Assembly (NCBI GenBank): GCA_951406725.2
Contig: OX597818.1
Location: 128,154,001-128,218,000, forward strand
Source: Octopus vulgaris
Taxonomy: Eukaryota
Length of the DNA: 64,000 bases
Direction of reading: 5' to 3'
Below the pieces are notes generated by a model. That model searched no databases and had not been told where the DNA came from. It was given only the letters and a program-made list of their open reading frames with translations. Position numbers and translations under genes: made by a program. This document shows, in pieces, positions 8,159 to 43,392 of this stretch (its first letter is position 1; each line of letters begins with the position of its first letter).

Positions 8159-9318
8159 ATGTCACCTCACGGAATCAAAGGAACAGGCAAGAAAAATAAG
8201 TGCTCATCACTTAGTGTTAATGGACCAAAAATGCTTGCAAAGAAAAAAAGGAAGATTTTAAGTGAGACTCCTGATGTTGATGTGTCTGGAAAAGCAACCA
8301 GTTGGCGTGGTCTTAAAATTGAATCCTCAAATGATCTTAAAGAGAAGATACTGAAGCAGTTAACATGTCCATCTCGCCAGTACAAAGGGAGAGATGGCGA
8401 AATAGAGCTTCCTCCCAAGAAAAAGCGGAAATTTCAAAACAATGGCAGTGTTGAAACTGATTCAGATGTAGAGAAAACTAGTCGGAGAAGCAAACTGATG
8501 AAAAAACAGTATCTGGAAAAGCCTAGCTCTAAAATGCAAAGATGGAAGAAGCTGGCTGAAGATGCTGAATTCTATGGGTCTTCAAATTCTGCAAGCAAAG
8601 GCAAAAAGAAAAAGAAATTAATGACTGTAAATTATGATGATGGGGTTTGTGTTTATGATTTGCACACACCCAGCAAATTGAAGAAAATGAAACGGCAAAA
8701 AGGTGCTAATCACATAGTCAACAAAAAGAAGGTTCATATTGGTAAACGTGTCATTACTCCTCACAAGGGGGGCCGAAAGGAAGCCATGAAACCAAAACTC
8801 AATGTCAGCAGCAGTCGTTTAAAACTTTTGTCTAAAAAACAACGAAAGAAGCTTGAGGAAAATTATTCACTGCAGATATACAGTGATGTGGAATTGTCAG
8901 ACAGTGATGTGTCTGCTGATGGACAAAATGTAATTTCAATCAAGAAAGGCAAGTTTTCAATGCCTGACAAGTGGAGTTATCGACAACTGCTGAGCAAGAA
9001 AAAGGCCAAGTCTAAGAAAGAACAGGAATGCAATGTTGGCAAGATAAAAAAGTCAAAGCAGCATCACGAGCATGTTTTGGAGGATGAAGATTCCTACGAC
9101 AACATTGAAGAAGCTTCTTCTGATGAAGATTTATCAGAAGTTGATGATGATGACGAGGATGAGGATGAGGTTGATGATGCTGAAGAGGATGATGATGATG
9201 ATGAGGAAGAGGATGATGATGATGATGAGGATGACGACGACGAAGACAGTGAGGCCCAAATGAGTGATGAAAGACTTGGTGCAGAAAAGAAAAATGTATC
9301 AAATCAGAATTTACCCAA
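8159..9318 (+). CDS. NOL9: NOL9 first coding exon: Lys-rich basic region plus long Asp/Glu tract (low complexity, nucleolar-targeting type); potentially shared with the SENP isoform
   Basis: 386 open codons with many basic clusters (PPKKKRK, KGKKKKK) and an acidic tract at ~9080-9260. Ends at a perfect donor AA|GTAAGT (phase 2) matching the phase-2 acceptor at 42863. Confidence 0.78.
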
Positions 9319-12299
9319 GTAAGTTATTTATTTCTCATTACTTGATTACTTTTTTTTTTTTCTTTGTTCTTTATGACTGGTCTTTTCTAAAATATGCATA
9401 ACATTAAGTCACTGGACTTTGTCAGCATAGGTATTTTTTCTTTTTTTTTTTTGCTTTTTATATCATTTATGTATACAAAGAGAAGAGGAAACATTAATGG
9501 TTAAGTGAGGATTGAATTTGCATCTCTTGGTTTAATGCCCAAGTGCTTCCCAAATTAAACTTCTGTTAATTTGTTCCTGTAACAGTCTTAGCATTATTCA
9601 TATATGTAGTTAAAATCTTTTCGAAATGTGTGCAAAGGCTTGTAAATTTACATGAAAATATCGATGAAGCATGAAGTAGATGATATCAAAGAGACTCAAG
9701 TTAACAAGAGATGTGGGTTTAAAATCTTAGCTGATTCTAGCTACAAATGCTCTTTTTGTCAGTATGTATATTATCATTTTAGAAATATTTACACATAAAA
9801 GTAGACAGTATCTCATGTGTTTAATGATGCAGGCACAAGGAAGATATATTGAAACAAAAAGTGAGCTAACTACAAACTGAACCTCAGTTTTTTATAAGCC
9901 ATTCAGTTAAGCTGCAAGATCTTTTACCAGTTTATCATGTTTATAAATTTAGATGTATTTAATCACATGTTCCTTTGATTATGATATTCTAAGGGTTACT
10001 GATTTCCCCATCTTTTGTGTTTCATATTTCTAATCGTCATTACATAAATTTTTATAGTACTTATTAATATATTGTTTTAATGTTAAAGATTCTGGTGTGA
10101 AAGTTTTTGTTTTGATATCTCAAAATCGGTTCAGATGGTTAGTTTCACTTCAGATCTTATTTTATTTAATGCTTGGTTTCAGGTTAGGAGATATAGATCT
10201 CAAATTCTTCAGTTTTATTCAGTATCTTATAGACTGATTTTCAGATTAAGTACATTATTATTATTGTCTACTACACCATCTCTCTAACAGAGTATGCTTT
10301 TTTTCTTTTTTTTACACTTCTTAGTAGTACTATGTCTGCTCAGTTGATATCATTCAGTAACTTCCAAGTTGCAGCATACCCTTATCACAAATATCATTTT
10401 GACATCATTGCAGTTCTCATGCTCTGTTCATCAGTGCCACTTTTTCATACCTGATACATATTACTTCATCTGTTGTTGGTATGACAAATTTACATACATC
10501 TAACATGTTCCTCTCTAAAGCAGTTTTACAGTTACACACCTATGACAGACCAGTCACACATTTGATACATTCATTGTACTTCTTGAATGAATGGAGAATG
10601 ACTGATCAAATTTTTCTTTTTATTTAAGGCAATCAGAAAATAAGTTAGGATAATATTGCCTATGACTTATATATTTCCCCTCAAAATTCTTGGTTAATTC
10701 TTTTAGCTTGGTTGAATGTTTTGTACCTTAACTTTTGGTTGGTTAGAACTTTGGTGAATTATATATAATTTTAGCAAAATAATACTTGGTCAGTTGCAGA
10801 TATTTACAAATGGTACATACATTTGCTACTAAATCCTAGATTCTATTTCTGCTTGACATATTACTATTAACTGTCTATCTCATCAGCTATTATCTTAAAC
10901 CAACTTTGCATTATCTTAAGGTTAAAGCTTTTAAATTTTTCTGGTATTGTTGAGAAAGCAATGTCTTTGCTGGTTCATTCAGCATGCAACTATTGAAGAC
11001 TTACATTAATGCACACATTTCATACAGTATAGATATCCTTTTCTACTCCAGGCACAAGGCCCAAAATTTCTGGGGAAGGGCCAGTCGATTAGATTGACCC
11101 CAGTACACAACTGGTACTTACGTTATTGAACCTGAAAGAATGAAAGGCAAAGTCGACCTCGGTGGAATTTGAACTCAGAACATAAAGAGATGAAATGCAT
11201 ACAGTATAGATATTGCATTGCAGTTCTTATCTTTTTGAGAATGTATCTAGACATGCACAAAATACTTAAGTAGCAGTTAGTAACTACTGCAGCTATAATT
11301 GTGGGTTTTCAGCTGGTTCTGAAGAATGTGTGTGTGTGTGTGTAGTATTTAAAAAATCTACTTACAGTGCCTGAATATTTTCACGTAATCTTATTGGCAT
11401 AATAAATAGATGTACTTGAACAAACTGCTCAGTTATCTACACACACATGCACACTAATTTTGGTTGGATGGAGAGCTGGGTTTTTTTCTGGCCAAATGTA
11501 AATATATTTTATTGTCTAACAGGATGTTAACCACAGTTTTTCCAGTCAAGATATTTTACTCTGTTAGTAGGAAGGTGTTATTTTTTAAAATTACTGAACT
11601 GTTATGTACTTAGATGAAGGCTGTGTAGTTAAGTTTGCTTCCCAATTGCTTTGTTACAGGTTCTGTTGCCCTGATTGGCTATTTGGGCGTTTATTATCTA
11701 TTGTAGCCCCTGGCTGACCAAAGCTTTATTAGGGAATCTGGTAGACAGAAACTGAAAAAAGCTTGTCTTATATGTGTGTGCATGTGTTTGTGTCTATTTG
11801 TCTTGACATTATGCAATAGTTGTAATCAAATATCACTATCTTACATGTAGTGTGTCAGTCATTTCAAATCTTCTGTGAAAGTGTTTGGCCATAGAAAAAT
11901 ATTACTTTTCTTGGGAACAAGTGAGAGTTGGTGACAGAAAGGTCATCCTGCTGTAGTAAATTTGCCTTCACGAATTCTGTTTCCTCCATGCAAAGAAAGA
12001 AAAATGAACATTAAAACAATGCTGATAATGAAATAATTTAGTAACTGGCAATTGTGATCTTAAGTTGATTAGATTGGTCTAAATATTTTTATGGTCCTTT
12101 GTTCCTTGATCTGCTGCAGAAGCTAATAGTAGATGAATGGCTGGTGAGAGCTGTCCCAGTCATACACAGGAGTACTGTTAGTGAGGTAACAGTAGTGTGC
12201 TCAGTGATGAATTTGGTGTGCAGATAGTTCATCAGGTCTACACCTCCTTCTGTTTGTCAGTCTTTTAAGCCATAAGAACTCATTGCCTGTCAGAAATCC

Positions 12300-12850
12300 T
12301 TTCTGCTGATACTCATGTTCATACAGCTGAATCTAGTAGAATTAGAAAAATTTCAAATGTGCAAGTAAAACTTGGAATCAAAGGGCCTTAAAATTAACTT
12401 AGCAAAGTCTTAGTAAGCAAGAGAGCAGTACACTAATCCCTTTAGGAAAATGGCCTTGTTCAGTATGTAGAAATCCCATCTGGTGTACACAGTGCAAACT
12501 ATGAACACATTAGAGGTCCAGTGGATTCACAGGAAGATTAATAGAAAGTAGACTTTGTGGAAGCTAACATTCTCTACTAGACGTGCATTGTTAGTGTGCA
12601 TATATGACAAAGTGTAAATGTATTTAAAGAAAAATTGGGCATAAGAGGCATCAGCTATAGTGTGCTGGTATGGTTATGTGCTGTATATGGATGAGGATAG
12701 TTGTATAAAGTGTCAATCACTAACTATGGATAAAACTTGTGGAAGGAGGAGATCCATGAGAAAAGACATGAAAACTGACCTCAGGTTGTTGAGCCACTGC
12801 AATGTTGTCAAAGGACCAAGATGATTGGCAGTTAGTTGTGCTTGAGAAAA
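12300..12850 (+). mobile_element. Decayed RTE-type LINE fragment
   Basis: Remnant LESKGLKINLAK and Cys-rich GKWPCSVCR..CTQCKL typical of the RT C-terminal part of RTE-clade elements. Confidence 0.6.
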
Positions 12851-15625
12851 CCCTTTCCTCTTAACATATTGATAATGTCTATGTCCCTGCACCCAATCTG
12901 TACCTGTGAAGCCTTCCACACAACTCATTTTTATAACCTTCATCCCTCCACCTTTTTAATGAGATATTATTTCTTCAACTGCTGCAATTTTATGAATGGA
13001 ACTGCACATACTTCATCCCTTTTGTGCTACCCTCTTCTTGGAACCACTTCTTCTGTCACTCATCCTGCGCTCCCCAATGTTGTTGTATTCCATTGAGCTC
13101 TCCTCACACATATTTTCCTGTCATTATATCCACCACTATGTCCTTCTGGCTTGCATCTCTGTTTCCCCTTCATTTTTATTCAATTCTCTATTTTGCATCT
13201 GTCTGTGGTTTTATTATACTCTTACTTGCCACCCACTCCTATTTTCCTTTACCCTAAACTGACATTAACCATTAACCATACCTCTAACCATGTTCACCAT
13301 TGACTGCATTCACCTTTACCTTCATCTCTGTCTCTCTATTTTCGCAATTCTCCGTTCCTATTTTTACTTTGGGCCCTCACACCTCACCTTGTTCATTCTT
13401 TCTCCTTTTTGCTAAGGTAGCTATATATCTTTGCAGCAAGACACCTGTTCATGTCTGTCTATCATACTTTAGCCTCTCAACACAAAGCTACCTCCCTCAG
13501 TACTGCACTTCTATTCTGTCAAATGATCTTGTGAGTTGGTGATCTCATGTGTGCCAGTGCCATAAAAATAAAGCACCCAGTACACTCCATAAAATGGTTG
13601 GCACTGAGAAAGGCATCCAGCCATAGAAACCATGTCAAAGTACATAGTGGAGCTTGACACAGTCCTCTTGCTTGTTTGATCCTGTCAAACCATCCAATCT
13701 CTGCCAGCATGAAATATGAATGTTAAAGAAGGATGATTATATACTGCGGCTGAGAACATGGGTTTTATTGTTGTCATATCTTTACCTATTTGTGTATAAT
13801 GTAAACTGATTGCTTGATGCTTGGGTTTTTGGAGATCTTACCAAGAAATTAATGATTGAAAACAAAACAAACAAAAATTAGTTTAAAAAGAATTCATATC
13901 AATAGCATTATTACAACTTAAATTTTTTAATCACATTATACAAGAGAATTATTAAAGCTTTATCTGAATTAATTAGATATGTTGATTAAATAAAATTAAT
14001 TTTTAAAAAATGCTAGAGTACTTAGTTGAATAATTGTTTGTTGTTTAGTTAGTGCTCTGGTATAAAATTTAATACCTAGCAAAATTGAATAATCTCTTTT
14101 GCCATGTTTAGCATCATATTTCTGTATGTATAGTTACTGAAATGCTTAAGAGTTTGATAAGTTTTGAGTGTAATACTCTTTATTTTTAGGCTTATTTCTT
14201 TCTATTTGTATCAGAGAGCTATTTGAAGGCTCATCTTTTCTTGTCCAAAGGAAAGGTAAGATTCCAATCAAGATAGTATTTATTTTAGCTGGACTGCCTG
14301 TACTTATTTCATTAAACCATGAGCAATGAAGGACTAAATTGACTTTGGTGATACACTAAGGGCTGAAATTTGTTACTAATAGGTATTAATCACTTGACAT
14401 TTATCTCTACTAATTAATTGTCTGCTTTTCTTTGTTAGTATACATTTGATAAGTTCATCTCATTCTATATTAATATACTTCAGAGCATCACCTCTTCTGT
14501 ACCTAGATATATAGTCTTGTGTATAAGGTGGTTTGCCAGCAAGATGGGGTTGCTGTTGTTCTGTCTATATCCTTGGTTAAAGGTCAGTCCAACATCCACT
14601 TCAGGTCAGAGCTAATGTTTTACTGCAGGTGCTACTACATTTAGAAATACACATTTTTCTAATTGGACACATTTCATTTTCATGAACTGCTACTAAGATC
14701 AGACTAGTACATTTTTTTCCCCCATTTGACTCTTTTCGTGTGACAACATTTAATTCTCCAATATTTTTAGCATTTCCATGTTTTATTAGATTGTTTTAGG
14801 CAGTCAGTTTTTTTTTTATCAGTAGAACTTTCTCTTAATTTTTGAAGTAAATTTGTTTTTTCTGAAACTAATCTCTAAGTTTCATTCAAATTCAGCTCCA
14901 TTGATTTTATTGACTTAGTTGATCCTCAGTGTTAGTATTTCTGCCTCCATATTTTAACAATTTGTTTATCTTGCATTGACCTTTAGTCTCAAACTAAGTA
15001 AGATCACATTTTAGTGCTGATTTAGTTTATTAGGCCTCCTGTTTTTCCTCTGCAAAACAGTAGAGCTTGTGTTGAATCCAAAGAAATAATTTTTCTAGAA
15101 GAATCCAATAGCTGTGTTTATGGTTCTCGACACCCTTAGTATTGATAACAATAAAAAAAAAATCAATTAATCCTGCAACAAAAAAATAGATCAAAAGGTA
15201 GAATTTTAAAAATTGAATGAATGCTTATTGTTTTGATTCAAACTTTATTTCTGCTTGCTGTCTAATGATTAAGACTCGTTTTATATTAAGTAAAGACAGT
15301 ATCCATCTATCGTCATTCGACACTGCTGCATTTTCATACTCAATACAAAATAAGATATCTATATTTTTATCTATTATTTACTATTGTAGGAAGGAATTAA
15401 TGTTAAGATATTATAATTCATAACACATTTATCACCATTCTTAGTCTCACTGCTATTACATAAGACAACATATTTGGTGTAGTTGTTATAAATTGGTTTA
15501 GTTGCTTTAAGTCTAGCTGTTTTGAGCTTAAACCCTGTCTGTCTCAACATTTATACCAGTAATATATCCCACTCCCTTACAAAATTAGTCTTATCCCAAC
15601 ACAATAAAAAAATAAAATGCATTCA

Positions 15626-15842
15626 TATCACAGAGGCATATAAGCATCTCTTATCTGTAGCTATGAAGCCCCATATGGATGGTTAAATGACACATATCAG
15701 CTTCTCTGGGATTTTACAATGTAGTGAGTAGGGTGCATATAAGTGTCTTTGGTATTTTAGGGCTATCTTTAAGCAATGCATATATGTGCTACTGAGATTT
15801 CATAGCCATAAATAAGAGATGCTAATGTGCATCTGTGGCATA
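15626..15842. mobile_element. MITE-like element with ~40-bp imperfect inverted arms
   Basis: cacagaggcatataagcatctcttat...ctatgaa versus ttcatag...ataagagatgctaatgtgcatctgtg. Confidence 0.55.
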
Positions 15843-24977: not shown

Positions 24978-26240
24978 TATTGGGTCATCCCATATACAAA
25001 GTGGTTTTTTAATACTTTTATGTTTCAAAATTAAGATAAACAAAGTTCCTTTTTAATCTAAAATATACTCTCCTTCATTTTCTACAATGTTCTTCCATCT
25101 ATCTTGTGGACTTGCAAGGCCCTTCTTCCAAACTTCGCTTGTCTGTGATGAAAAATACTCCTCCAGTACTGTTCTGACCTCGTCTACAGAATTCATATTT
25201 TTTTCTGTCCAAATGATTTTGATGACTTGAGGAATAAATAATTAGGTGGGGCAATGTCCAGTGAATATGGTAGTTGGGGCATCGTTTCCCATTCAAACTG
25301 CTCCAGCTTTTGGAATGTCATCTTCGCTATGTGTAGCTGAGCATTAACCTGATGGAAGAATACCTTTCATCTTGAAACCAAAGATAATCATTTTTTTCTT
25401 CTACTGCTGACTTAAACTGCTCAAGTTGCTTGAAGTAGACTCCTTTGTTATCGTTTGGTTTTGGTTAAAAAGCTCAAAGTGGACTAAACCTTATATATCC
25501 CACCAAACAGATAACAACACCTTACATAGGTGAAGATCTTCTTTAGCCTGGTGTGCCCCTGTTTCTCCTTTCCCTACCCAGTCTCTTTGGTGCTTGACAT
25601 TTTTATAGAGAACCCATTTTTCATCATCAGTCACTATTCGGTCCAAAAAAGGTTCATTTGTGAGATATGATAGCACAGAAGAGCACACATTCATTCTTTG
25701 TACATGATTAGCCTAGGAAAGTTTGTGAAGAACCCATTGACTCAATTTACTGACTTTTCCGATGGCATGCAGGTGTTGATAAATGGTTGAATGACCAAAT
25801 CTAAGCTTCTCTGCTAGTTCCTCAACAGTTTGCAGGACATCCTCGTCGAGCTCTACAGATCTTCCAGGACAAGGCTTGTCTTCAAGGCTGTAGTTTCTGG
25901 CTCAGAATTTCTGGAACCACCGTTGACACTGGCTTATGCTTATTGTCCAATCTCCATATACTGCATTAATATTCCTCACAGTTTTCGTTGCATTGTTGCC
26001 TTTATTGAACTCGTAAAGCAAAATATACCAAATATACTCCTTTGTCACTGCCATTATAGCTTTTGAAAAAATAAGTGTTAAAATTGAATTGCACTCTTCA
26101 AAACTTGCACTAAGAATAAGGACGAGGTAAAATTACTACCTGCTTTTATAGCAAGTTGATGCAGGTAGTTTATCCTGTCCCCCTCTGACTTTTAGTTCAT
26201 GGAATTGAAAAAACTACATTATTCATGGGATGACCCGATA
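24978..26240 (-). mobile_element. Full-length degenerate mariner transposon
   Basis: TA-flanked TIRs (T[T/C]GGGTCATCCCAT...), ~1.26 kb. Disrupted transposase from ATG at 26054 (MAVTKEYIWYILLYEFNKGNNA) with RIVTDDEKWVLY, KVLLSVWWD and a decayed LPH..YS motif. Confidence 0.9.
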
Positions 26241-26300
26241 TTTTCTTGTAGAGATATATATATGTATGTATGTATATATGTAGAGATATATATATGTATG

Positions 26301-26331
<31 letters not shown>

Positions 26332-26706
26332 TTTTAAGATATCACATTCTTTTTTTTCATCAGTAAAGCAATTTCTGTATTTTTTAAATATTTCCTAATC
26401 TTTTTTTTTTTTTGTTACGTCTACAAAGCCTACCTTTCAGTACTTAGGGTTTTTAAAACTTTCTTACAGGGTATCTACTTTGGTGAATTTTGGCTAAATA
26501 GTTAAAAATTAATATTTCTGTTGCAAATCTAATTAAAGACATCTGTCTTCATCAATGGTCTTTCTTAGTTTTTTTTTTTTCTATAATATATTTGAGTAAA
26601 TTTCAAAATGAGAACTTATGCATAACTTTATGTTGAAAAAAAAAAAAGACATGCAAACATTAAAAAATCTTATGTGTACTTTTCAAGCCCAATTTTTTAT
26701 TGGCAG

Positions 26707-29245
26707 TGGAAATTGGGAAATGATTAATGACGAGCGATGTCGAGAAGTGACTCAAGAAGACTATGGTAGTGCCTGGAAACAACATGATGGAGACACAACA
26801 TCAATTGTACTGCATCCATGGCCTCATGGTAACAACTTTCAAGAACAGCAGCCACATTCCCATCAAGTGCTACAGAAAAATAAGCATGCTGGTCTTGCGA
26901 ACACTTCTAATTTGTCAATTATTGGTGGTGTTCTTGACAGTACACTATCAGGACACAACAACCCAGGTATTTCTCATCCTTCGCTTCAACATTATCATTC
27001 AGAACAAGAAAAGCAACAGTCTCAATTTACTGAGAATCACATTCAGGTGCAAGATGGTTCTGTACGGCATTTTGGTGATCAAACTCAAATATACAATACC
27101 TATAATGTTGATATCAAATCCCAGACTCATATCTCAAATAACCAAACTGATCCCAACCAATCTTCCCAACCATGTCATCTACAGCAATATACTGACTTAA
27201 ATCACACTCAGTCTCAACCAAACGGTTCTTCGTTTGGTGCTTCTAAAGTAAAATATTATTACCCTGCAAGCTTTGGTAAAGAAGGTATTTTAGAGGTTGA
27301 AAGGGCTTTGCAACCTGTTCCTCCTGAAGAAGTACTGACTCAAGGTTTCCGCATAAATATAAAGCGATGTGATATGGCTACTTTAGTTGGGGCCAACTGG
27401 CTCAATGATGAAATCATCAATTTTTACATGAATATTATTGTTCAAAGAAGTAAAATAGATGGCTATCCTTCAGTCTACATTCCAAGCACATTCTTCTTTC
27501 CCATGGTTATGAAACGAGGCTATAATGGTGTAAGGCGGTGGACCAAAAATGTAGACATATTTGATCATGATTTAATGCTGATACCAATTCATTTGGAGAG
27601 TGAAAATCATTGGACTCTCATAGCTGTTGATTTCCTTCAGTCTAGTATCTGCTATTATGACAGTTATTTACAAGACAGGGATGATGCTATGGATGCAATT
27701 CTTAATTATTTGAGAGAAGAAATGAAAACCAAAAAGAATATTGAAATGGACACCAACTGTTGGGTGAAAGTGAATATGAAGAATATACCACTTCAAGAAA
27801 ACATGTCTGATTGTGGTGTCTTCAGTTGTATTTATGCCGAGTACATCAGCCGAGGAGACAAAATGGATTTTACTCAAGAAGATATGCCCTATTTCCGACG
27901 GAAAATGGTTTATGAAATTCTTAATCATAAAATAGTTAATCACAGTCCAAGGGATCTTGAGAATATGATTTCTGATGACCTTTTAGACGATATTACTTCC
28001 GCAAATGAAAATGGTCATATTCTGACACCAGATATTGCCACAGCCGTGATCCAAAATGGTCTACCTGACAATTTCCAGGGTCCTACAAAGGTTAGTGAGG
28101 AGGCTATGGGCTTAGCTGCTGTTTCAAAAGACACAGAAGGAGTCAGAGACGTTGAAAAGACCCAGAATGGTTCTACAGGTGGAGAAATGGAAGAAAAGGC
28201 TTCACCTGCAGAAGCAGGTGAAGAAACTAGTAGAAAACATAAAACCAATTTGATCTCTGAAATTAAAAGAATTGTCAGTCTCTTTGATGATGTCAGTGAA
28301 GAAAAGAGAAATCTACTTGAGAGTCAACTCTTTCAGTTGCTCAGAGAAAATCTGCAGAATTCTAACCAGAAAGCCAAGAAATTTAAAATCAGGCATAATG
28401 ATCTTGCAAGCATAATGTCAGTGATTGAAAAGCATTCAGGGGAAAATTCTGAGAGTGATGAATTAAATAGTGTCAGTGATGACAGTGCCAGTAGTAGTAC
28501 TGTCAGCAGTAGTTCTAGAACTACCACCAGTAGTACTGTTTCAAGTGATAAAGGAATAAAAAGCTCTGATGACACTGAAGTTTCAAGCCTTTCTGATAAT
28601 TCAGAAGAGTCAGGTTTGTTTAATATTATGAAGGAAATGGAGAAATTGTTTCTTTCTTTGGCTGCTTTTGTACGAATTATTTGCAAAACTGACCAAGAAC
28701 TGTTGAAAGGCAAAGCGGGAGAAGCGTCCAGTCGATCAAATTCTGTGATAAAAGGGATTAGCTACATTACGTCTAAACTAGAAAACATAAACCAAAGGTT
28801 GAAGAGTCAATCTATTCTGAAAACTGCTGCACAGCAACACATGACATCTCAGCATGACAGAAAAACATCCAAAAAATGTATGTCGCAACGTTTAGTGATC
28901 CAGAAAAAATCGAGGAGAAATGAAAGGGACATTATGAAAACCAAACATTGTTTGAGAAATAGCGTTACATTTTCAAACCAAGTTGGCAGTGAGGAGGACA
29001 TCTCCAATGATGAAACTACTGAAGCGAGACTTTTTACCAGCGCAGCAAAAAACCTTGGCATCAGTCTTGAAAGTGGAGCTTATTTGAAAAAGCTTCACTT
29101 ACGAAAAAACTTATTGAAAAAATTTCCATTGCCAGCAGATGTATTTGATTTGAATTGCCAGTTGCAGGACAAAGCTCACAAGCAACATGCATTCAAAAGC
29201 ATGGTGCGGTCAGATCATTGTAAAAAAGGAAAAAAGAAAAAGTAA
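26707..29245 (+). CDS. Intronless sentrin/SUMO-specific protease (Ulp1/peptidase C48, SENP1/2-like), nested in the NOL9 intron; ORF open from 26618
   Basis: Motifs WLNDEIINFYMN, VRRWTKNVDIF, IPIHL..HW, YYDS, QENMSDCGVF and FTQEDMPYFRRKMVYEIL. Catalytic His (27608), Asp (27659), Cys (27812) and oxyanion Gln (27794) are intact, with SENP1-like H-x16-D and Q-x5-C spacing. Acceptor ttttttattggcag| at 26706. Confidence 0.92.
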
Positions 29246-30054
29246 ACTCTTACACACTCACAAAAAAAAAAAAGAAAAAAGAAAGAAAAAATATCATTTA
29301 CCTGTCTGTCTACCTTTCTATCATCTGATTTTTCAAATTTTCATTGAGTTACTTTCTCATACTTCATTAATAGGCATACAGAAACACACATATACATATG
29401 CATGCATGCATACATACGTAAATACCTGTCAGCATCTTTTATACCTTGCAATCAACTAAATTGCTTATGATAATCTGAAAATACAGCAAAAGATGTACAC
29501 AAGTAGTCTAGGTCTGTTCATTTTTATACATGCAGAATTGGAAAACAAAATGAGCAGCTTTAAAATCATTTCAAAGCTCTTTAAATTCAATGTTAGTTTT
29601 GTCTGTTTTCTCTCTCTCCTATGTCCCATTACCACTGCCTCCGTCGCTGCTGTCGACCAGCAAGATCAACACTTACCACCATCACTTCCTTTCCTTCCAC
29701 TGTCAGCAACTCTTTGATTTCTTTGTCTTGTTTTGCTCATGAAACCCCATTTCTGCTGCTATTGTTGCAATGACATACTGTTCTCTGTTGAGTTCTTTGT
29801 AACAATCAAACCATTAAGCCCACTAAGACAGACATTGTAGGGAAATGTAAAAGATCTGTACCACGTCTCTTTCGTCGTTTGATGCAAAATGCATGGTAGT
29901 TTCTCTTACTCCAAAGACCATTGATGAAACAAAGTCAACTAGATGCTTTTTGATTGGCATATTGTTCATTTACTTTTCATTTATCCGAAACTTTTTTTTT
30001 TTGATTCCCTCTCTGATAGAAAGTTTTTAGTTAAAGAATGTACTATGAAAAAAG

Positions 30055-31378
30055 GCTGGATTTCAAATCGGGACACCCACAAAATTTGGATTTCTCCATT
30101 TTGATGAGGAGATTATTATTATTATCATATTTTAAAAATCACTATAGCCTTTAAAATGATGTGCTTTTTATGAAAAAAAATTTTGAAAATTTATGCTTTT
30201 TCCATCACCCCTTCACTACTTCTATCCAAACAGGTTTTGACCAATCTTTTTTGCACTACACACTTAAAAACAAAGGAAGAAGCCTTTTTGGTAAAAAGTG
30301 GTTTAAGTAAGATTTAGCATTTGTTTCTAGCACACCCTACGACTACCTGGTACCTTACTTGTTTCACCTTGACACCATGTGTGTGTGTGTGAGAAAAAGT
30401 ATATTTACCAAAAATAAAAAAGTTTAATGAAAAACAAAAATTTTGAAAATTTAATTTTTTTCAATCCTTCCCTCCATTTGTTTTCTGCTTATAATTTTGA
30501 AATATTGGAGAGCCTGAGAAGGCCATTGCTGGGATTTATCCACAGTGATTAAAAAAAGTGTGTAGTTTTAAGGGCGATATAGCTGTTTCTAGCACATCGT
30601 ACAAACTTTTTGGCATCTTCCTCATTTCTTTGCCATTCTGATATGTATTGATGTTTTTCAATATTTTTGTACCCATAGACATTTTATAGTATGGTGATCC
30701 ATTTCTGGGATTTAAGCAACAAAATAATTTGTAATTAAAATTTTTACTGCAGCCCTCTTCCACCCTGCACCAAGCAAGTTTGCATGTGTAAGGAAAGACT
30801 TTTGCTAACAGAAAAGAATGTTATTAAAATAAATTCTTTTACATACCCTTTTTTTTTTTTTTTAAATCACTGGATAAATCCCAGCAATGATCTTTTCAGG
30901 CTCTCCAATATTTTGAATTGATAAACAGAAACAAACAAGGGCGTTGAAAAAAAATTATTAATTTTCAAACGTTTTTTTCTTTTAATAACAGACTTTTCTG
31001 TTCTTAAATGCTTTTTCTTACATGTAATTTCGCTTGGCGCTAAGCTTGGGTGGAGAAGAAATGAGGAAGGTATCGGTGGGTTGTAGGGTGTACTAAAAAC
31101 AACTAAATCTCTTAATTCATACACCTTTTCTTCTGGAATTTTTTTTTTTTTTCAAACTGAAAAGTCTCCTCCCATTGTCTTAAAAAGTGTGCAATGCCAA
31201 AAAAAAAAAAAAAATTGACCAAAATCAGTTTGATTGTGGAAAGAAAGTGGGTATGAGGAAAACCATAAATTTTCAAAAAAAAAAAAAATTAAGGCTGTGG
31301 TGAAAAAAAGAAATTTAGAAAAATCACTGTCAAAACAGAAAATCTAACTTAGGTGGGTGTCCTGATTCGGAACTCTGC
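30055..31378. mobile_element. 1.3-kb non-autonomous DNA element with long imperfect TIRs (Mutator/fold-back-like)
   Basis: The ends are inverted copies (..aatcgggacacccac / gtgggtgtcctgatt..) extending >200 bp inward, flanked by tgaaaaaag/tgaaaaaaa direct repeats. Confidence 0.7.
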
Positions 31379-32173
31379 TGAAAAAAATAAATTTAGGGAA
31401 AGCATTTTGATTAAAAGTATGTATAACAGAAAAAAATGAGAGGTTATGGATTAGGTTATAAGGAAGCATACATACTCAATGAAGAAATAATAAATGTTTT
31501 TCTTTTTTTTTTTTTAATTTTCATTTGTTGTCTGCAATTGGAAGTCTTGCTCTGCTTTCTTGAGTTCTACATTATCAATTACTTCATTTCTTCATATTTC
31601 TTATGCTTCTTACCACATTGTCAATTCAATTCAGTTATTTCTGTGTTGCCTCTTGTTATTTATTTGTTTTTTTTTCTCTTTTTTTTTTTAAATACATACA
31701 ACAAATAAAGTTATTTTCATGTTAATGTCTGATGCAAATGACTTTTACTACTGTCTATATCGCCATACTATAATGTCCAGTATATTTATTACATATCAAG
31801 AACATGAATTATATGTAGTGAGAATGCTAGATGTGAAAACTTGATTAAAAGAGAGAAACTGTTGCCTTAGATGGACACAGGGCTCTGTCTATATGATGTT
31901 CCTTATCTGGAGAAAATATGGTATTTAAGCTTTTTATGAAGAATTGCTGAATTTCAGGCTGCGACTCAGAGGTTTTCTCTGTATTAAATAGATATAACCA
32001 CAGTAAACTGGCATTCAAATATCTTATCTGCATGATCAGTTGATCAAACTTACCTGTGGACTGTATGTTGTTGACACAAGCCATCACCATTTCTCTTGAA
32101 TTCCAAATCTAACACCGTCTTCATTTTTCAGCTGTGCCAGTACTAAGAGCTGTATAACCAGTTCCAGTCGTCT

Positions 32174-34569: not shown

Positions 34570-34964
34570 GGAGTGGTTGTGTGGTAAGTAGCTTGTTTAC
34601 CAACCACATGGTTCCGGGTTCAGTCCCACTGCGTGGTACCTTGGGCAAGTGTCTTCTACTGTAGCCTTGGGCTGACCAAAGCCTTGTGAGTGGATTTGGT
34701 AGACGGAAACTGAAAGAAGCCTGTCATGTATGTATATATATATATGTGTGTGTGTGTCTGTGTTTGTCCCCCCTAGCATTGCTTGACAACCGATGCTGGT
34801 GTGTTTACGTCCCCGTTACTTAGCGGTTTGGCAAAAGAGACCAATAGAATAAGCACTGGGCTTACAAAAGAACAAGTCCCGGGTTCGAGTTGCTCGATTA
34901 AAGGCGGTGCTCCAGCATGGCCGCAGTCAAATAACTGAAACAAGTAAAAGTGTAAAAAAGAGAG
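34570..34964 (+). mobile_element. tRNA-derived CORE-type SINE (family A)
   Basis: Head ggagtgg.tgtgtggtaag...gggttcagtccc (A/B boxes), CORE-like accttgggcaagtgtctt, central (TA)/(TG) repeat, and gtaaaaga tail. Confidence 0.85.
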
Positions 34965-34984
<20 letters not shown>

Positions 34985-34995
<11 letters not shown>

Positions 34996-35913
34996 TAGAG
35001 AATGCACAAACAAAACATGTGGTATCACTTTAGAGCATTTAATTTGTAAGTGCCGGTGGCATGTAAGAGAACTTTCCGTTTCGCGACCGTTGCCAGCACC
35101 GCCCCGTTTCGTGTCCGTTGCCAGCCTCGCCTGGCCCTCGTGCCGGTGGCACAAAAAGCACCATCCGTTCGTGGCCGTTTGCCAGCTCTGTCTGGCACCA
35201 GTGCGGGTGGCACGTAAAAAGCACCCACTACACTCACGGAGTGGTTGGCGTTAGGAAGGGCATCCAGCCGTAGAAACACTGCCAGATTTGACTGGGCCTG
35301 ATGAAGCCTTCTGGCTTCACAGACCCCAGTAGAACCGTTCAACCCATGCTAGCATGGAAAACGGACGCTAAACGATGATGATGATGATGATGAGTACTGA
35401 GTAATTACAATAAATATGTAAAGTCTCTTACAGCAGGTTCTAGAATAGCCAAGTGTGTAGAATATATGTTATTGAGCAAGGATTTCTATGTAAGCTAACT
35501 ATTCTGTCATTGGTGAGAGAGGGAGAGAGTGATAATGAATATCCTTAATCAAGGATATTTGTAGTTACCAAATTGTTGAAGAACTATCTTAAACTCAGTA
35601 AGGATTTCATAAATTCTTCAATCATGGAACTACCAACCACTATAATCTTTATACTTAGATCTTCAATTTGGTAACTACTAATGTCCTTAATTAAGGATAT
35701 TCTCTATTTCTCTCTCTCTCTGATGACAGTCTAGTTAGCTTACATGAAATCCTTGCTCAATAACTTGTTCCACAAGTTTAGCTATTCTAGAAACTGCTGT
35801 AAGGGACTTTACATTTTTTTCTATAACTACAATGTACTGTTTAAATTATAAATTAAATCCTGTAAAGTGATACCACCTGTTTTGCTTGCTTATTTTCTAT
35901 TTCTAAGATATAT
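34985..35913. mobile_element. Palindromic fold-back MITE interrupted by a SINE in its left arm
   Basis: 34985-35049 plus 35393-35608 is the imperfect reverse complement of ~35640-35913 (e.g. ttattgagcaaggattt / aaatccttgctcaataa). Confidence 0.75.
35050..35392 (+). mobile_element. Family B repeat
   Basis: gtgccggtggcac subrepeats, conserved core and (GAT)n tail. Confidence 0.85.
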
Positions 35914-36794
35914 CTGTCTGCCCTACAATGATCTACATCTGACCATCTTTGAAAAGCTGCCTTGACACCAACTTTCATTCTGTTGCAGTTCAAGCTGAAG
36001 TTTTAGTGGAAAACCAAACTGAGCACTTAAAGTACATATTACATTACTTTATTAGAAGGTGGTGTCCCAGCATGGCCGCGGCCTTCAGGCTAAAACATTT
36101 TTAAGGATTTAAGGATATATATATATATAGGAAGGGCATCCAGCCGTAGAAACACTGCCAGATTTGACTGGGCCTGATGAAGCCTTCTGGCTTCACAGAC
36201 CCCAGCAGAACCGTCCAACCCATGCTAGCATGGAAAACGGACGCTAAATGATGATGATGATGATGATGATGAAATAAATGGCTAGCAAGGACACGGTACT
36301 TCATTTTATAAACATAATATACTACCAAGTATTTTAAAGGTTTACGTGTTAATATGGTCTTTTTATGATAGTATTACAATGCTTTCATTTTAACGTTTAT
36401 AAATTTTCTATAGAATTCAGAGCCAGCACTTCAAATTATGGCATTTTGTAAGTAATGTATGTATATGCATATTTCAAGAGTTATTGCTCTTTTATCAGCA
36501 TCACATCCAACCTATCAACTATCCACGAATGCATTGCTTAAATACCCACCGAATTTAATGGTCTAACACTATTGGATAGACCAGTTTAAGTATTAAATTC
36601 ATTCTTAGCAACTGGTTCATGAACATTAATTGTTAGCAAGGACAAAATTTCGTTATGTAACCATAATATTCTACCAAGTACATTGACGGTGTATGAAATG
36701 TAACTTGCAGTGTTGGCTCTTAATCCTATAGAAAATCTATAAGATCAACGCAAAAAGTACTCCATCTGGTGTGAGAAATATTTAATAAGCAATT

Positions 36795-36943
36795 TATGTT
36801 TTATGTGCTACTATTAGTTTCATGTGCTGAGAGCATGCCAGATAGTATTTTTAAATACGTCTGGTGTCTTAGATTGATGATTGTACTAGGATACCAGGCA
36901 TTTAAAAATACTGTCTGGCATGTTAGTAGCACATAAAAACATA
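36795..36943 (+). other. Long hairpin (pre-miRNA-like or small fold-back element)
   Basis: 36833-36872 pairs with 36886-36923 around a 13-nt loop; outer arms 36795-36813 pair with 36924-36943. Confidence 0.6.
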
Positions 36944-39900
36944 GTGTTTATTTTATATATGTAAGTGTGTGTGGCATATTCAACAAGTGGCTCATTAAGT
37001 TGCTATGGTGGAAATTGAATAACGTGATTTAATAAATTTAGCTATGAATAGTCTCACATTCAGTAAATGTTTTTTCTATAATTAACAAAACTAATGTATG
37101 TTAATGAGAAAAAGAAAGCTTAATTCTTTCTTTGGGAGAAAATTACTTGTGTGAAGAATTTGTGGAGTCAGATGTAAGGAAGTTGAGCCGTACAGATTAT
37201 ACAGAATCTTAAAGACGTATGATACTTACACTGAACATATTCTTGAGACTGCATCATTAATTCTAATCCTATTCTTAAGGTTGTATTGTGCAATGAACTT
37301 ACTGGAGTCATGTAAACTTTTAGGATACCTACAAAAAAAGATAACTACAAAATTTACTTGTTATTGATATTTGAGTGCATTAGGTATGGGTTTAAAGATA
37401 TTTCATGTTTTTCTTTGAATATATGAAAAATAGATTTAAACATTACTGAAGGAATGAAATGCTATTGACTTCAACAAGACACAAGTTTCGTTTCCATCAT
37501 GTATGATAAGAGAACACAACCCTCCCAAAGGTTAAAAAAAATATTGGCACAAAAATGAATTGAGCCAAGTAATCTGTATTACATATTAAGACCATCAGAG
37601 CAGTTATGCTATTGTTTCTATCTACCAAGATTTTGACTATCACCAATATACACATGTATGTGTCTATGTATGTTTTACTCCTTTATATAATATATATATA
37701 CAAAGAGAGAGAGATGTATATATTTGTTCATCTTGTGTTTTTTTTCTATAAGAGCAAGGGTTGAATGAAAACTTGGTAAAATTTTGCGCCTATCTCCAGT
37801 TATTATTTAAATAAGTGGTCTTTGAAAACTAGTATTATAGTGCTTTAACAAGTTTTTTTGTTTCTTGGCATTCACTAAATTTCATGCAGGGTTCTCTTTT
37901 TGCATTGATGTAACTGATACGTTGCTCTGATCAGTACCTTGCTGTCTGGAGGTCTGTTGTCAGGTCCCAAAAGCTTCATTTTCCAGCTGAATTTGAATTC
38001 TGAATGCAAACAGTTGCAAGACATCTGTGTCAAATGTTCTAAAACACATATGCCAATTCATTGTCCAAATAGTTGACTAGTGGAATTTGAACAAATACCA
38101 AAAGGCATTTTATCCAGTGCTGTAATGACTGCCAGTTTTGTTACCTTCGTTTTAGCAGAACGAAACCAGTCACTTTGACTTCAGATGTTATACACTGCTG
38201 GTTTCAGTGTGTTTCCAATTCTTTCTTGATTGCTTCCTTCTTTACCGTCTTGGCCCACGTTGTCTAAATTGTCTTTCCATCACTGTGGAAGCTTTCTAAG
38301 TGGCCTTGGATACTACTTGGCAACTGCACAGGTTTACTTGTTGTTTGTGAACTTTGCGACAGCTCTGACCAAGTGGAACTTGTGTTTTTGGTATTCTCCA
38401 ATCCCAGCAATCACCCTGCTCTGTTCTCAAATTACCTCATTTTGCAATGATATTCCTAGCATCAATCTTTCCACGACCCCTTGCATTGTAGCCAACTGAT
38501 ATTCTTTGCAGTTGTCTACATCTCACTTGTATATGAGAATTAAGCAAGTAGATTAGCTAATATCAATTCTATTTGTGTACCTCAAAGTAGCTTATTTAAA
38601 TCCCATAGTTATTGGACAGCAGCTTGAATTGGTGATAATTAGTTAAAGCAAATTTCAAGAGAATGTCTAGATGATCACTATTACACTATCTTAAAATGAG
38701 AGGACACCTTCAACAATCTAGTCCTAGACACACTATTCCTGAATATGGCCGTTAAGCATATGATTGTAGTGGTCATCCCCCACTACTATCTAACAACCAG
38801 TGTTGGTTTGTTTATCTCCATAGCTTAGTGGTTCAGCAAAAGAAACTGATAGGATAAATACTGAGGTTGATATGTTCAACTAAGCCCTTCAAACCGGTGC
38901 CCCAACATGACTGCAGTCATGAACGGCATGTGGAAGCTCCATCTCTTCATGTTTCTGTTGCAGCATCTCTTCCCTTGAAGTTGTTTCACTCTACAGTGAG
39001 ACATCTTCAAGATATTTCTAAACTCGGGTCACTCACAGGTTTGTAATGGAGATACATAATAGATTCAATCAATCCCAAAACATGGTGGGATTTTATTTTA
39101 TAAACTCTGGCGAAGTTGATATTATATTCTATTTAGTCCAACTGAGATGTTTTTGTAGCCCCAGGTCAGCTTTGATGGAGTAGATCTATAATCAAAGGCA
39201 TTCCAGTCATGACCATTTTATCTTTTCTATGTTTCTAGGACTATTATCTCACATGTCCTTTCTATTTTTTAAGACAGTAGTGGTGTGGTTTGATGGCAAT
39301 TTGACTACTACTTCTAGCAGACTAAGCCAACTGTATTGAGGCTCCTTCATTAGTTGTAGTTTAAATATGTACCATTTAAAATGATTTTCTATCAAACTGT
39401 TCCATATTGGCATTTCAGTGTAAAGGGAGTCCTATAATTGGGAGCTTTTTAATAAAGGTTTTCTTGTCTAAACAAATAACTGAACTTAATCTTAGTCTGC
39501 TAGAAGTAGTTGTCAAATCTCCATCTTAAAACAAGAAGGACATGTGAGCTAATATGGTCCTAGAACATTGGAGAAAAGAAAATGTTTGTTACTGGAATGC
39601 CTTTGATCATAGGTCTGTTCAATCAAATGCGATTCTTTATCACCAAAGGTCTCTTGCTGTTCATGATTTCTCAAGGGCACAAATTTGTAGATCTGCTATG
39701 TAATCCACAGATTTAATGCTAGTATATGCTGGGGAAATGAAAGGCAGTCAATCCTGGTGGAATTTATATTTTGAAGTTACAGGATATAACTCAAGGATGT
39801 AAAAAGTGGTGCTCCAGAATGGCTGCAGTGCAATAACTGAAACAAAGGTACATGCATTTAGTAGTTGCAATGCAGTTTGATGTCCATGAGATAGGGGAAG

Positions 39901-40165
39901 CTTGTGCACAGAATAGGCTGTTGCCATCTCATTTAACCTTTAATTAGATCTATATGCCAGTTCCAATGATAGGATGAGTTGGGGGTGATTATTAGAGAAC
40001 ACTAGGCTGACGTTGAGTACTGAAATGAATTGTGCATATCTCCAGGAAAGAAAAGGGTTAAACTACCGGCTAATGATCTATTTGTCAATTTTTCAGTGTT
40101 ACAGCTGCCTACAGAGTACTTACTATTTTCAGCAAAGTGGACTGAGTTAGGGTAGTGTTTATATA

Positions 40166-40902
40166 TATGGTGCGGTGAATAAACTGTTTAAATTACACAA
40201 AAATGAAAGTAACAGATATCTCACTTTCATAAAAATCTTTTTAAATACCAAGGAGTAAATTTATTCAATAAAATTGCCATTGGCTTCAACCACGACCTTT
40301 GGAATCCCCTGCAACTCTTCTGGACAGTCTCCTTGTTTAAATTGGTGTTACAAGGAATTTTATTCATCTCTTGCTCAACTGTGCCCCACACATAATAATC
40401 AAGGGGGTTGCAGTCTCGGGAGTTAGGAGTGATGTGGTCACAGAAATTGTGTGACAGTCATGACTGGGTTCTCCTGCTTGTGTGGCATGGTACAGAGTCC
40501 TGTTGCCATACAGGGTTTTCCAGTAGCCCCCTCTTGACCCAGGGCAGCACTACTTCTAAGCACTTGATGTAGGCCTCTGTGTGGAGACCGTGTGGGAAGA
40601 TGAATAGAGGTATAACATCACCATCACTACTAATCAGTCCTGTCTGATTTTACCGCTCTCAGTACATGTCCTCAAATTGACATCCAAACACTCTGAAATG
40701 TTTGTGTTAGAGCTCCATGTGCAAGTGACAAACAGTACAGCATGTCATTTCCAAATTTTTGGCACAGTGAATTGCATCATGGTGCTTTTTTTCTCACAGA
40801 CAAGTCCCCAACTGACCCTACTATACTGTATAGTTGACAAAATCAAAAACAATGTGCATGTCCAAAATTAAAAATATAAAATGGTGACAATTTACCCATC
40901 AC

Positions 40903-40908
<6 letters not shown>
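40166..40908 (-). mobile_element. Internally deleted Tc1/mariner-superfamily (maT/DD37D-like) transposon relic
   Basis: Minus-strand fragments WQQDSVPCHTSRRTQ and PNSRDCNPLDYYVWGTVE; imperfect TIRs within TA runs. Confidence 0.7.
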
Positions 40909-40942
<34 letters not shown>

Positions 40943-41057
40943 GTACTAAGGACTTGTTTCATGCCAGACAATTATTCCATGGACCAGGGCGATCACATTC
41001 ATAAAAAAGCAAAATAAAGTCAATAATATATAATTTAATCATTACGTACACACAGCA

Positions 41058-41780
41058 TTGGTGCTGGTGCCGTGTAAAAAGCACCCAATACACTCTGTAA
41101 AGTGGTTGGCATTAGGAAGAACATCCAGATGTAGAAACAAAGTCAAAATACTATGGAGCCTCATATGGCCCATGGCCTTGCCAGCTTCTGTCAAGCCATT
41201 CAACCCATGCCAGCATGGAAAATGGATGTTAAATTATGATGATATATATAACTATATATATATATATATAAATAACATATATATGCATACTTTGATAGTC
41301 AATAAAATAGAAATAAAATTTTTATATGTGTGGCACGTAAAATACTCCAATGCGACCGTACGACAGGCACCCATGCCAACCCCCTTTGCTTGTGAAGACA
41401 TGTTGGGGCAAGCGAAATCGAAATCAAAATCGAAATCAAATTGAACCAGCCAGGATCCCTGGTCTGGTGGTACGTAAAAAGCACTATCCGACTCATGGCC
41501 GATGCCAGCACCGCCTCGACTGGCTTCCGTGCCGGTGGCACATAAAATACACCAATCTGACCGTGGCCGTTGCCAGCCTCGCCTGGCACCTGTGCAGGTG
41601 GCACGTAAAAAGCACCCACTACACTCACGGAGTGGTTGGCGTTAGGAAGGGCATCCAGCTGTAGAAACATTGCCAGATTAGACTGGAGCCTGGTGCAGCC
41701 TTCTGGCTTCCCAGATCCCCGGTCGAACCGTCCAACCCATGCTAGCATGGAGAACGGACGTTAAACGATGATGATGATGA
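41058..41780 (+). mobile_element. Two tandem family B repeats (41058-41242 degenerate; 41325-41780 long)
   Basis: Conserved core and GAT tails. Confidence 0.8.
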
Positions 41781-42862
41781 TATATATATTGAGAGAGTAC
41801 TTCGGTTTGTCAAGGGTTACTATTCATCTGCTCATGTGCAGGCTGGCACAGATATTTTTGAAGAAGACTAGAAATTGCTCATGCATACAAGTTTCCCCTT
41901 TCCATGCCATCAATGTTTATCCAAGAGAAAAGCTACTGATACTGCTTGACACCAGTTTTGTTGCAGGTATTGCTGTCGGAACAGAAAGAGCTGAAACAGA
42001 TACTGTAAGACATCTCACCTGACCCTATGACAGTTTTCCTAGTTTACTACCCTCAGTTGGTACTTTTTATCAACTCTGAAAGGATGAAAATACACCTGAT
42101 ATACCACAAACTACACAGTGGATCTAATATGTAGTCTGTATATTATTAATGTTTGTAAGAGTTTGTCTATCGTCTTGCAGAAGACTTTGGTACATCATCA
42201 GTCAGGTTTCTGGTCACTGACAACACAATGTTCCACTCATTCTAAATGAGACAAAAATGTATTTGAAAATGTGCTTAAAATGTAAGTATTATACCTGGGT
42301 TACATACTTTATTTTTAAGAATAATCATAACTGCTCTGAACATTGTACACCTTCACAATGCTTCCTTGAGATTTTCCAGCCCCTTATGAACTCAGCATCC
42401 CAAAGTGGACCACTTACATAGATCAGCAGTTATTACTTTGTATAAAGACTGGGTTTCCTTTTTACGTCCTGAATATGCTTTAATTCAGAATAATCATTAA
42501 CTTTTTACATGACATAAGTGTGCACATGCATATCTATGAGTTTGAGATTTCAGCTGCTGCAAACAAATGAGACTGCATTGCAAAAAAATAGAGCCATCAG
42601 ACTGATGAGAAAACATTCACTTACCAACAGGTGAGAACCACGAGCTCAGTGTAAGAAAATCTTTATTTATTCATATATTTTACTGCACGTTTCCTTAGTA
42701 GTCAGCTAATTGTCATATATTGCACTGCTTGGTTTTGAGGATCATCTGAGAATGGCTAGTCTTCCCATTGACTCACCTACTCAATGATATTTACACCTTC
42801 ATATTACTACAAGCTAATAATGAAAAATTCCTACTTATTAAACCTATTTGTTTATTTTTCAG

Positions 42863-43392
42863 GCATATCTGGATAGCTCGATGTGAAGACCAAGCCATTG
42901 TAAATCTCAAACACCCATTGGAAAGAAACTTGGCTGGATTCTGTGAAATCAGTGTTTTATCTGGTTGTATTTGCTTATTAGATGCGAAAATAGTGCCAGA
43001 TGGACAGTGGCATCCATTATATTCTCCACACGACCATACACCTCTCAAGTTGGTGACTCTACATTCGTGTGGTAAGGATGGTCTTGTCATCACCAAAAAG
43101 AAAGTTGCATCGATGCTTTCAGAGTCAGACAATTTTGTAAACAGAATTGATTCTAATTCAGTAATTCTGTTGGTCCGCCGACTTCGGTGGGCTTTCACTG
43201 ATTACATAAGCACCATTCGTCCATATCAGAGTCTCTTTCAAGGACTGAAGGAGGAAGACAAAACTACATGTAACCAGACCCTTCAGCCATTTGGTATAAG
43301 TTTCATTGCTAAATCAAATATGCCAGATTATACTTCTTCAGCTGAGGAAGAGCATTTTATAGAAAAATGGGAGTCATTAATAAAAAGTAAAG
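42863..43392 (+). CDS. NOL9: NOL9 exon (N-terminal domain preceding the kinase domain)
   Basis: Acceptor tttatttttcag| (phase 2), open frame HIWIARCEDQAIVNL...EKWESLIKSK, donor AAG|GTTTGT (phase 1) in frame with the Walker A exon. Confidence 0.82.

Follow-up and report, generated by a model that had tools for sequence, protein, structure and literature searches.

Can a single first coding exon of an octopus gene supply the N terminus of two different enzymes? The question is raised by a 64,000-nucleotide stretch of the Octopus vulgaris genome (GenBank assembly GCA_951406725.2, contig OX597818.1, positions 128,154,001 to 128,218,000 of the forward strand), referred to here as the window; coordinates below are window positions. 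The gene for the kinase NOL9 begins in the window with a long first coding exon, and an open reading frame for a SUMO protease of the SENP type (Ulp1, peptidase family C48) is nested in the intron that follows. An initial annotation proposed that the first exon is spliced either to the protease or to the remainder of NOL9. The analysis presented here describes a NOL9/protease gene that is real, old, constrained, and apparently undescribed in the literature. No paper was found on the NOL9/SENP pairing or on four identifiers in a search that did not extend to most subscription journals and supplements, and cephalopod gene tables could mention the locus.

Two products of a shared first coding exon

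The donor of the shared exon is TTACCCAA/GTAAGT at 9318 (the slash marks the exon boundary). Two acceptors of matching phase lie downstream: ttttttattggcag/TGGAAAT at 26707, which opens an exon with its stop codon at 29243-29245, and tttatttttcag/GCATATC at 42863, which opens an exon with the next donor after 43392. Direct reading of the sequence showed that the coordinates of the initial annotation were all correct. The predicted junction sequences are TTACCCAA/TGGAAATT for 9318^26707 and TTACCCAA/GCATATCT for 9318^42863. Making the first join in silico yielded a protein of 1232 amino acids with zero internal stops and three differences from the Octopus sinensis protein XP_029637096.1. The second join yielded 563 amino acids with no mismatch to the start of the O. 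vulgaris NOL9 protein (P0001). The translated exon is 100% identical to P0001 and to the start of the 1232-residue fused protein (P0002), and it is single copy in the genome, where 34 candidates were scored and 1 matched. Thus, both forms must use exon 8159-9318. The idea that the protease is preceded by its own duplicate of the first exon was rejected on the basis of the window alignment and the single genomic copy.

Both products are also found as database proteins. For O. sinensis (locus LOC115212363), NCBI holds isoform X1, the 1232-amino-acid fusion (XP_029637096.1), and isoform X2, NOL9 (XP_029637097.1); for Octopus bimaculoides (locus LOC106871249), XP_014773087.1 and XP_014773088.1 form the same pair of fusion (X1) and NOL9 (X2). 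The consecutive accession numbering suggests that X1 and X2 of each species derive from a single gene record. The NCBI automatic annotation already contains both isoform models, with the fusion labeled uncharacterized. When longer proteins were queried with the shared exon, there were 3 matches among 8000 candidates scored, the two NOL9s and the 1232-amino-acid fusion.

Agreement of phase alone is weak evidence for a splice join, as the initial annotation had cautioned, because 4 of the 14 AG sites near the protease acceptor (26500-26780) are in frame. The join 9318^26707 rises above chance because the protein of a distant relative is joined in the same way, and its homology to the nested exon of octopus starts exactly at the acceptor (NGNWEMINDE in octopus, NGDWENVNEE in the relative). 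This protein (P0015, from Logan) has 1248 amino acids encoded on one 3963-nucleotide contig and consists of the shared region, in diverged form, and after it the C48 exon; C48 is its only Pfam family. A second Logan protein, P0069, is a 948-amino-acid NOL9 with three NOL9 domains, in a cluster of 4 from contigs of up to 3419 nucleotides. P0015 and P0069 are identical over 389 residues and part at the same point as the octopus pair, and the first 320 residues of P0015, used as a query, returned only these two proteins among 5551 candidates. The coding sequence of octopus NOL9 is split into at least 11 pieces that together span about 64 kb, so the contigs of P0015 and P0069 are spliced products. 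Three protein pairs, from octopus species and from the distant relative, are thus available in which the two members are identical for 386 or 389 residues and then diverge. All three have the layout known from insect Su(var)3-9/eIF2gamma, a shared coding 5' exon with two alternative downstream enzymes. We consider it very probable that exon 8159-9318 is spliced to either 26707 or 42863; in-silico splicing and the database proteins confirm the initial proposal of two phase-2 acceptors leading to a 1232-amino-acid protease and to NOL9.

Several observations weigh against this architecture. Only one sequence, from one contig, represents P0015, and it may not come from the same species as P0069. 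No fused-form protein from O. vulgaris or Argonauta was found among the matches or cluster members, and five related proteins (P0016 and P0058-P0061), as well as P0014, lack the shared exon. The support for two isoforms consists of predicted NCBI models, assembled contigs, and in-silico splicing. The presence of the whole fusion on only one assembled contig could also reflect an annotation or assembly artefact. However, the same join is present in NCBI models of two species and in a separate contig assembly from a lineage that is 43% identical in the shared region, which makes an artefact extremely improbable.

The proteins that lack the shared exon might instead indicate that the protease is expressed chiefly as an independent gene, nested in the intron and started there, and that the fused mRNA is minor. 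An open frame with in-frame ATGs extends 31 codons upstream of the acceptor; the 29 in-frame codons noted there in the initial annotation are present, from an ATG at 26618. P0014 (871 amino acids) is a protein call that starts in this open frame, and P0016 and the four cluster members without the shared exon come from contigs of up to 4904 nucleotides. However, no methionine ahead of the domain is conserved (392 in P0002; the first is at 459 in P0015), the conserved residues begin at the acceptor, upstream of those methionines, and CpG is depleted at 26001-27000 (observed/expected ratios of 0.42 and 0.35). Furthermore, assembly contigs often break at splice branch points, which would yield truncated calls. 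An independent nested gene is therefore an improbable explanation.

Table 1. Features of the NOL9/protease locus and of the paralogous SENP gene
Feature	Position	Strand	Details
CpG-undepleted region, candidate shared promoter	2501..4000	.	Ratio of observed to expected CpG, 1.06-1.25 (three bins of 500 nt)
Probable 5' untranslated part of shared exon	7983..8158	+	Follows acceptor ttattaacag; use of this acceptor is inferred
Shared first coding exon	8159..9318	+	ATG at 8159; 1160 nt = 386 codons + 2 nt; phase-2 donor
Alternative terminal coding exon	26707..29245	+	Q/H-rich linker, Ulp1/SENP C48 domain, ~430-aa tail ending KKGKKKK, stop
C48 catalytic domain, intronless	27296..27937	+	Pfam PF02902; SENP1 alignment; motifs kept
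Probable protease-form 3' untranslated region	29246..31760	+	Candidate AATAAA at 30413, 31386, 31489, 31704 (pattern scan)
Second coding exon of NOL9 (phase-2 acceptor), encoding a cupin-like N-terminal domain	42863..43392	+	P0001 residues 387-563
Further NOL9 exons, kinase P-loop region	52162..61837	+	~52.2, 57.6, 60.1, 61.7 kb; tblastn of P0001, approximate boundaries
Canonical multi-exon octopus SENP1-like gene (locus L006)	G000:C9:47846038-47854274	-	Intact catalytic domain, 217 codons + stop

Age and constraint

The NOL9 kinase of the relative is 53% identical to that of octopus; the octopus kinase shares 85% identity with that of Argonauta, 42% with that of a bivalve, and 39% with that of Aplysia. 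The lineage of the relative is probably squid or cuttlefish. Octopods separated from squid and cuttlefish about 270 to 300 million years ago. The fusion had been proposed to be lineage specific, but it is not limited to octopus, since P0015 and P0069 represent a far more distant lineage. P0069 also has about 34 extra Q/E-rich residues (390-423) between the shared region and the cupin domain that are absent in octopods.

Constraint was measured by amino acid identity. Octopus and P0015 are identical at 200 of 235 positions of the C48 core (85%), at 53 of 123 in the linker, and at 148 of 414 in the C-terminal tail (36%). Between octopus and the relative, the shared basic region is identical at 126 of 291 positions (43%) and the NOL9 kinase with its C-terminal domain at 181 of 339 (53%). 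By this measure, the protease core is far better kept than the essential kinase of the host gene, which points to strong constraint.

Catalytic domain, linker, and tail of the nested exon

The nested exon corresponds to residues 387-1232 of P0002 and is homologous along its whole length to P0015 and P0016. Pfam Peptidase_C48 (PF02902) was detected in it with an E value of 7.6e-39 (134 bits, against a cutoff of 20.7) and was also detected in P0015 and P0016. The catalytic residues, in P0002 numbering, are His688, Asp705, Gln750, and Cys756 (codons at about 27608, 27659, 27794, and 27812), and the HW, YYDS, and Q...SDCG motifs, aligned to human SENP1, are kept in all three nested sequences compared. 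The glutamine is the oxyanion residue of the SENP catalytic site. The nested protease is very likely an active SUMO isopeptidase, as predicted from its sequence.

Comparisons of the catalytic domain favor a position nearer to SENP1/2 than to SENP3/5. The match to human SENP1 had an E value of 7e-62, and bit scores against PDB entries were 212 for SENP1, 209 for SENP2, 130 for SENP3, and 128 for SENP5. Identity was 50-51% to the octopus SENP1 paralog, 47-50% to other spiralian SENP1s, and 37-40% to SENP3/5. SENP3_5_N (PF19722) had no Pfam match in the nested exon, P0002, P0015, or P0016. The nested proteases have 476-498 residues after the catalytic cysteine, versus 42-43 in the other SENPs measured, and they do not share the C-terminal placement of the catalytic domain that is typical of SENP1/2. 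Two further differences in the window at 27590-27815 are kept across lineages: a two-residue insertion before the catalytic histidine (PIHLE-SE/ME-NHW) and a methionine or leucine just before SDCG, where SENP1s have glycine. These changes could alter substrate preference.

The tail (27940-29245, about 430 amino acids) had no Pfam family over the cutoff, no usable match in the ESM Atlas, and no match in the paralog, and as a genome query it matched only itself (1 match among 42 candidates). A Pfam match to Rep_4 was rejected as below the cutoff (15.6-17.4 versus 27). Amphipathic helices are predicted in the tail with low confidence, and its end, FPLP..FDL...RSDH.K.GKKKK, is conserved in both lineages. 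A structure prediction for the nested exon from a 9-row alignment was uninformative (mean predicted local distance difference test score, 32.6).

Origin of the nested exon

A genome search for C48 returned two loci among 11 candidates, the nested copy and a gene on another contig (G000:C9; Table 1). In this paralog, the C48 domain is distributed over 6 exons separated by 5 GT-AG introns, and the stop comes right after the domain; the nested copy has 0 introns. Because the nested copy is intronless where the paralog has five introns, a retrocopy origin is indicated, and the nested exon is probably an mRNA-derived retrocopy of SENP1 type. The SENP1-like retrocopy of the initial annotation is supported in that the exon is intronless and SENP1/2-like. 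Across 50 kb of the paralog locus nothing similar to the linker or tail was found (best E value, 0.49), and neither a polyadenylation remnant nor parental flanking sequence was shown; decay is expected at such an age. An A-rich run after the stop was considered as the poly(A) tail of the retrocopy and rejected, because 430 codons separate the run from the SENP-derived part.

The first tree had 29 rows and gave long-branch warnings; in a second tree, from which 14 rows (near-duplicates and long branches) were removed, the sister of the nested clade was the same open fork. The nested clade had a support of 98/100, with a stem of 0.71 and inner branches of at most 0.1. Rapid change along the stem and near stasis thereafter make up the pattern expected of a new, fixed function, which suggests that the protease acquired one.

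Two results count against a simple derivation from octopus SENP1. In the tree, which contained no vertebrate SENP1/2 rows, the approximately unbiased (AU) test rejected neither the nested clade as sister to octopus SENP1 (p value, 0.121) nor its grouping with SENP3/5, which is absent from the best tree (p value, 0.166). Moreover, the linker and tail resemble neither the paralog region nor any of 12 other SENPs. The AU result for SENP3/5, together with the PIHLE motif common to the nested domain and SENP3/5, would be compatible with the nested domain being a surviving invertebrate member of the SENP3/5 branch, whose nucleolar role would be inherited rather than convergent. However, the 37-40% identity to SENP3/5 is no higher than the 40-42% of the canonical octopus SENP1, and the nested domain is 50-51% identical to that octopus SENP1, which also has PIHLE. 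The nested sequences have no SENP3_5_N domain, and SENP3 is reported to appear in vertebrates (PMC12292926). Descent from the SENP3/5 branch is thus very improbable, and a SENP1-type retrocopy is the origin assumed below.

Proposed mechanism and localization

The shared exon, in which no Pfam family was found, encodes a basic segment (amino acids 1-300; isoelectric point, 10.2; KKKRK at 28 and 87) and an acidic segment (amino acids 301-386; isoelectric point, 4.1). Both KKKRK clusters are retained in the fusion of the relative, P0015. In human NOL9, nucleolar localization requires a basic signal at the N terminus, which is also sufficient for it and takes GFP to the nucleolus, and LAS1L can be bound without the N-terminal tail (10.1101/647073).

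The targeting-type region had been attributed to NOL9 originally, and NOL9s from other animals agree with this attribution. Ten NOL9s, including P0069, were named among the best 150 matches of a NOL9 profile search, and all nine of the non-cephalopod ones (bivalves, Aplysia, Lingula, and Lineus) are extended at the N terminus by 188-379 K/R-rich amino acids, with a K+R fraction of 0.21-0.26. The acidic tract of these proteins is weaker (8-14 D/E per 30 residues versus 27-28 in cephalopods), and none of the nine extensions aligns to the cephalopod profile (best other E value, 0.046). Judged by composition only, the basic N-terminal extension is an ancestral property of NOL9. A basic N-terminal stretch of NOL9 was proposed to be unique to vertebrates (10.1101/647073), contrary to the long basic N termini of these mollusc, brachiopod, and nemertean NOL9s (P0070-P0075, P0079, P0080, and P0083). 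C48 was absent from 153 NOL9-type proteins; because the set was chosen by NOL9 similarity, this says nothing about nested proteases elsewhere.

The explanation that we favor, if by a small measure, is as follows. The catalytic part of a SENP1-type mRNA would have been copied into the NOL9 intron before octopods split from the lineage of the relative. A phase-2 acceptor would then have captured the inserted copy, which would have evolved rapidly, acquired its long C-terminal tail, and become fixed. Transcription would begin in the CpG-undepleted upstream region, and one transcription unit would give two enzymes by the choice of 3' splice site and 3' end. Donor 9318 would join either the nearer acceptor at 26707, with a 3' end at 30.4-31.8 kb, or skip to 42863. 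Each transcript would encode a single enzyme, because the nested exon closes with a stop codon and most likely carries a polyadenylation site of its own. The shared basic/acidic disordered region would carry the protease to the nucleus, and probably to the nucleolus, beside NOL9. There it would deSUMOylate pre-60S or rixosome factors, the job of vertebrate SENP3/5.

SENP1/2 are excluded from the nucleolus, where SENP3/5 act (PMC4281951), and SENP3 joins the rixosome via a PELP1 motif, with both motif and SENP3 appearing with vertebrates (PMC12292926, PMC11976907). A SENP1-derived nucleolar deSUMOylase would fill the SENP3 gap in cephalopods. We lean slightly toward a protease that is mainly nucleolar with substrates in ribosome assembly. 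Two observations oppose this localization. The octopus exon is Lys-rich and may not be homologous to the Arg-rich human signal. In addition, the fusion lacks the folded domains of NOL9, including those that bind LAS1L. Since the human tail is also not needed for LAS1L binding, the fusion would not be able to dock on the rixosome as NOL9 does. It may share the address of NOL9 but not its docking site, and convergence with SENP3 would come by colocalization, a different mechanism.

The lack of any NOL9 folded domain is also what would be expected if the protease borrows only the NOL9 promoter and a generic nuclear import signal, reaches nucleoplasmic or chromatin substrates via its own linker and tail, and has a merely coincidental link to ribosomes. 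The tail, with its end conserved in both lineages, could do its own targeting. Su(var)3-9/eIF2gamma, which joins unrelated functions and has been interpreted as expression hitchhiking (PMC1435931), likewise argues in this direction and against a nucleolar role. However, the basic/acidic disordered part of about 390 amino acids, with conserved KKKRK, resembles the localizing region of human NOL9 and was retained on the protease in both lineages. We regard this alternative, which has the same gene architecture, as possible but rather unlikely.

A broader interpretation of the nucleolar protease can be offered tentatively. Coleoids might have built their own SENP3 equivalent from a SENP1 copy and the NOL9 targeting exon, such that splice and polyadenylation choice would set the ratio of kinase to deSUMOylase. 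SUMO removal might in this way have become coupled to the processing of internal transcribed spacer 2, and possibly to rixosome-linked silencing, twice over: through exon sharing in cephalopods and, separately, through a PELP1 motif in vertebrates.

Other features of the locus

CpG statistics suggest a promoter role for the region at 2501-4000. A second CpG-undepleted patch is present at 5501-6500, and the CpG observed/expected ratio is 0-0.45 over most of 9.5-26.7 kb. The probable 5' untranslated region contains five ATGs upstream of the main start, and upstream open reading frames may control both isoforms. The AATAAA sites listed for the protease form are only candidate polyadenylation signals, since the motif is common in such A/T-rich DNA.

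The NOL9 form has 930 amino acids, and its gene runs about 8.6 kb past the window end (tblastn of P0001 on adjoining stretches). Cupin_NOL9 was detected in the exon at 42863 when this was taken by itself (E value, 3.9e-07; 30.1 bits); in whole P0001 it scored 26.1 against a cutoff of 27. CLP1_P and NOL9_C are over the cutoff in P0001, and Cupin_NOL9, CLP1_P, and NOL9_C all are in P0069. A repeated element that translates as MAAV.*LKQ is found at 34917, 39819, 48897, and 56194 on the plus strand and at 43698 on the minus strand. An O. bimaculoides NOL9 model (P0008, 561 amino acids) starts with MAAVQSLKQR, to which the copy at 39819 is closest, and continues with the cupin exon. P0008 is either a gene-model artefact or the product of an exonized repeat that gives NOL9 without the shared exon. 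A long TA microsatellite lies among repeat copies in the NOL9 intron (44890-45710).

Comparison with known systems and implications

The closest known layout is insect Su(var)3-9/eIF2gamma, in which an enzyme exon lies in an intron of a housekeeping gene, one promoter and 3' alternative splicing serve both products, retrotransposition was proposed, and the arrangement was kept for about 400 million years (PMC1435931). As in octopus, two proteins with a common N terminus arise where an enzyme exon is nested in an intron. However, the insect shared part has 79-84 amino acids and the partners are described as functionally unrelated (PMC1435931), whereas in octopus about 390 amino acids of probable targeting sequence are shared and both activities are found in a single complex in vertebrates. 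Primate CSB-PGBD3 is similar in that an intronic open reading frame serves as an alternative 3' terminal exon, producing a conserved fusion beside the full-length host protein; the primate insert is a transposase at least 43 million years old (PMC2268245), in contrast to the cellular enzyme copy in octopus.

With vertebrate SENP3/SENP5 the octopus protein shares an Ulp1-branch C48 SUMO protease tied to the NOL9 pathway, a link that is proposed for octopus (PMC12292926, PMC4281951). Vertebrate SENP3 is the product of a separate gene, is recruited and activated by a PELP1 motif, and has SENP3_5_N and a C-terminal catalytic domain (PMC12292926). The octopus fusion has instead an internal catalytic domain, the N terminus of NOL9 itself, and no SENP3_5_N match. 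SENP1/SENP2 and the octopus paralog have the nearest catalytic domain, with the triad kept. Unlike SENP1/SENP2, the nested protease is intronless, and its catalytic domain is internal, with a tail of about 430 amino acids, the insertion before the histidine, and methionine or leucine in place of glycine.

For work on cephalopod genes, a knockout aimed at the first coding exon of NOL9 takes out two enzymes at once, and protein sets with one isoform per gene drop either NOL9 or the protease. If the protease is nucleolar, SUMO proteases dedicated to 60S assembly evolved on two occasions and in different ways, and the locus would offer a direct test of whether localization alone replaces PELP1 docking. 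Even if it is not nucleolar, the nested exon is a new, probable cephalopod retro-capture. At this old and strongly constrained locus, one gene makes two different enzymes whose activities share one complex in vertebrates.

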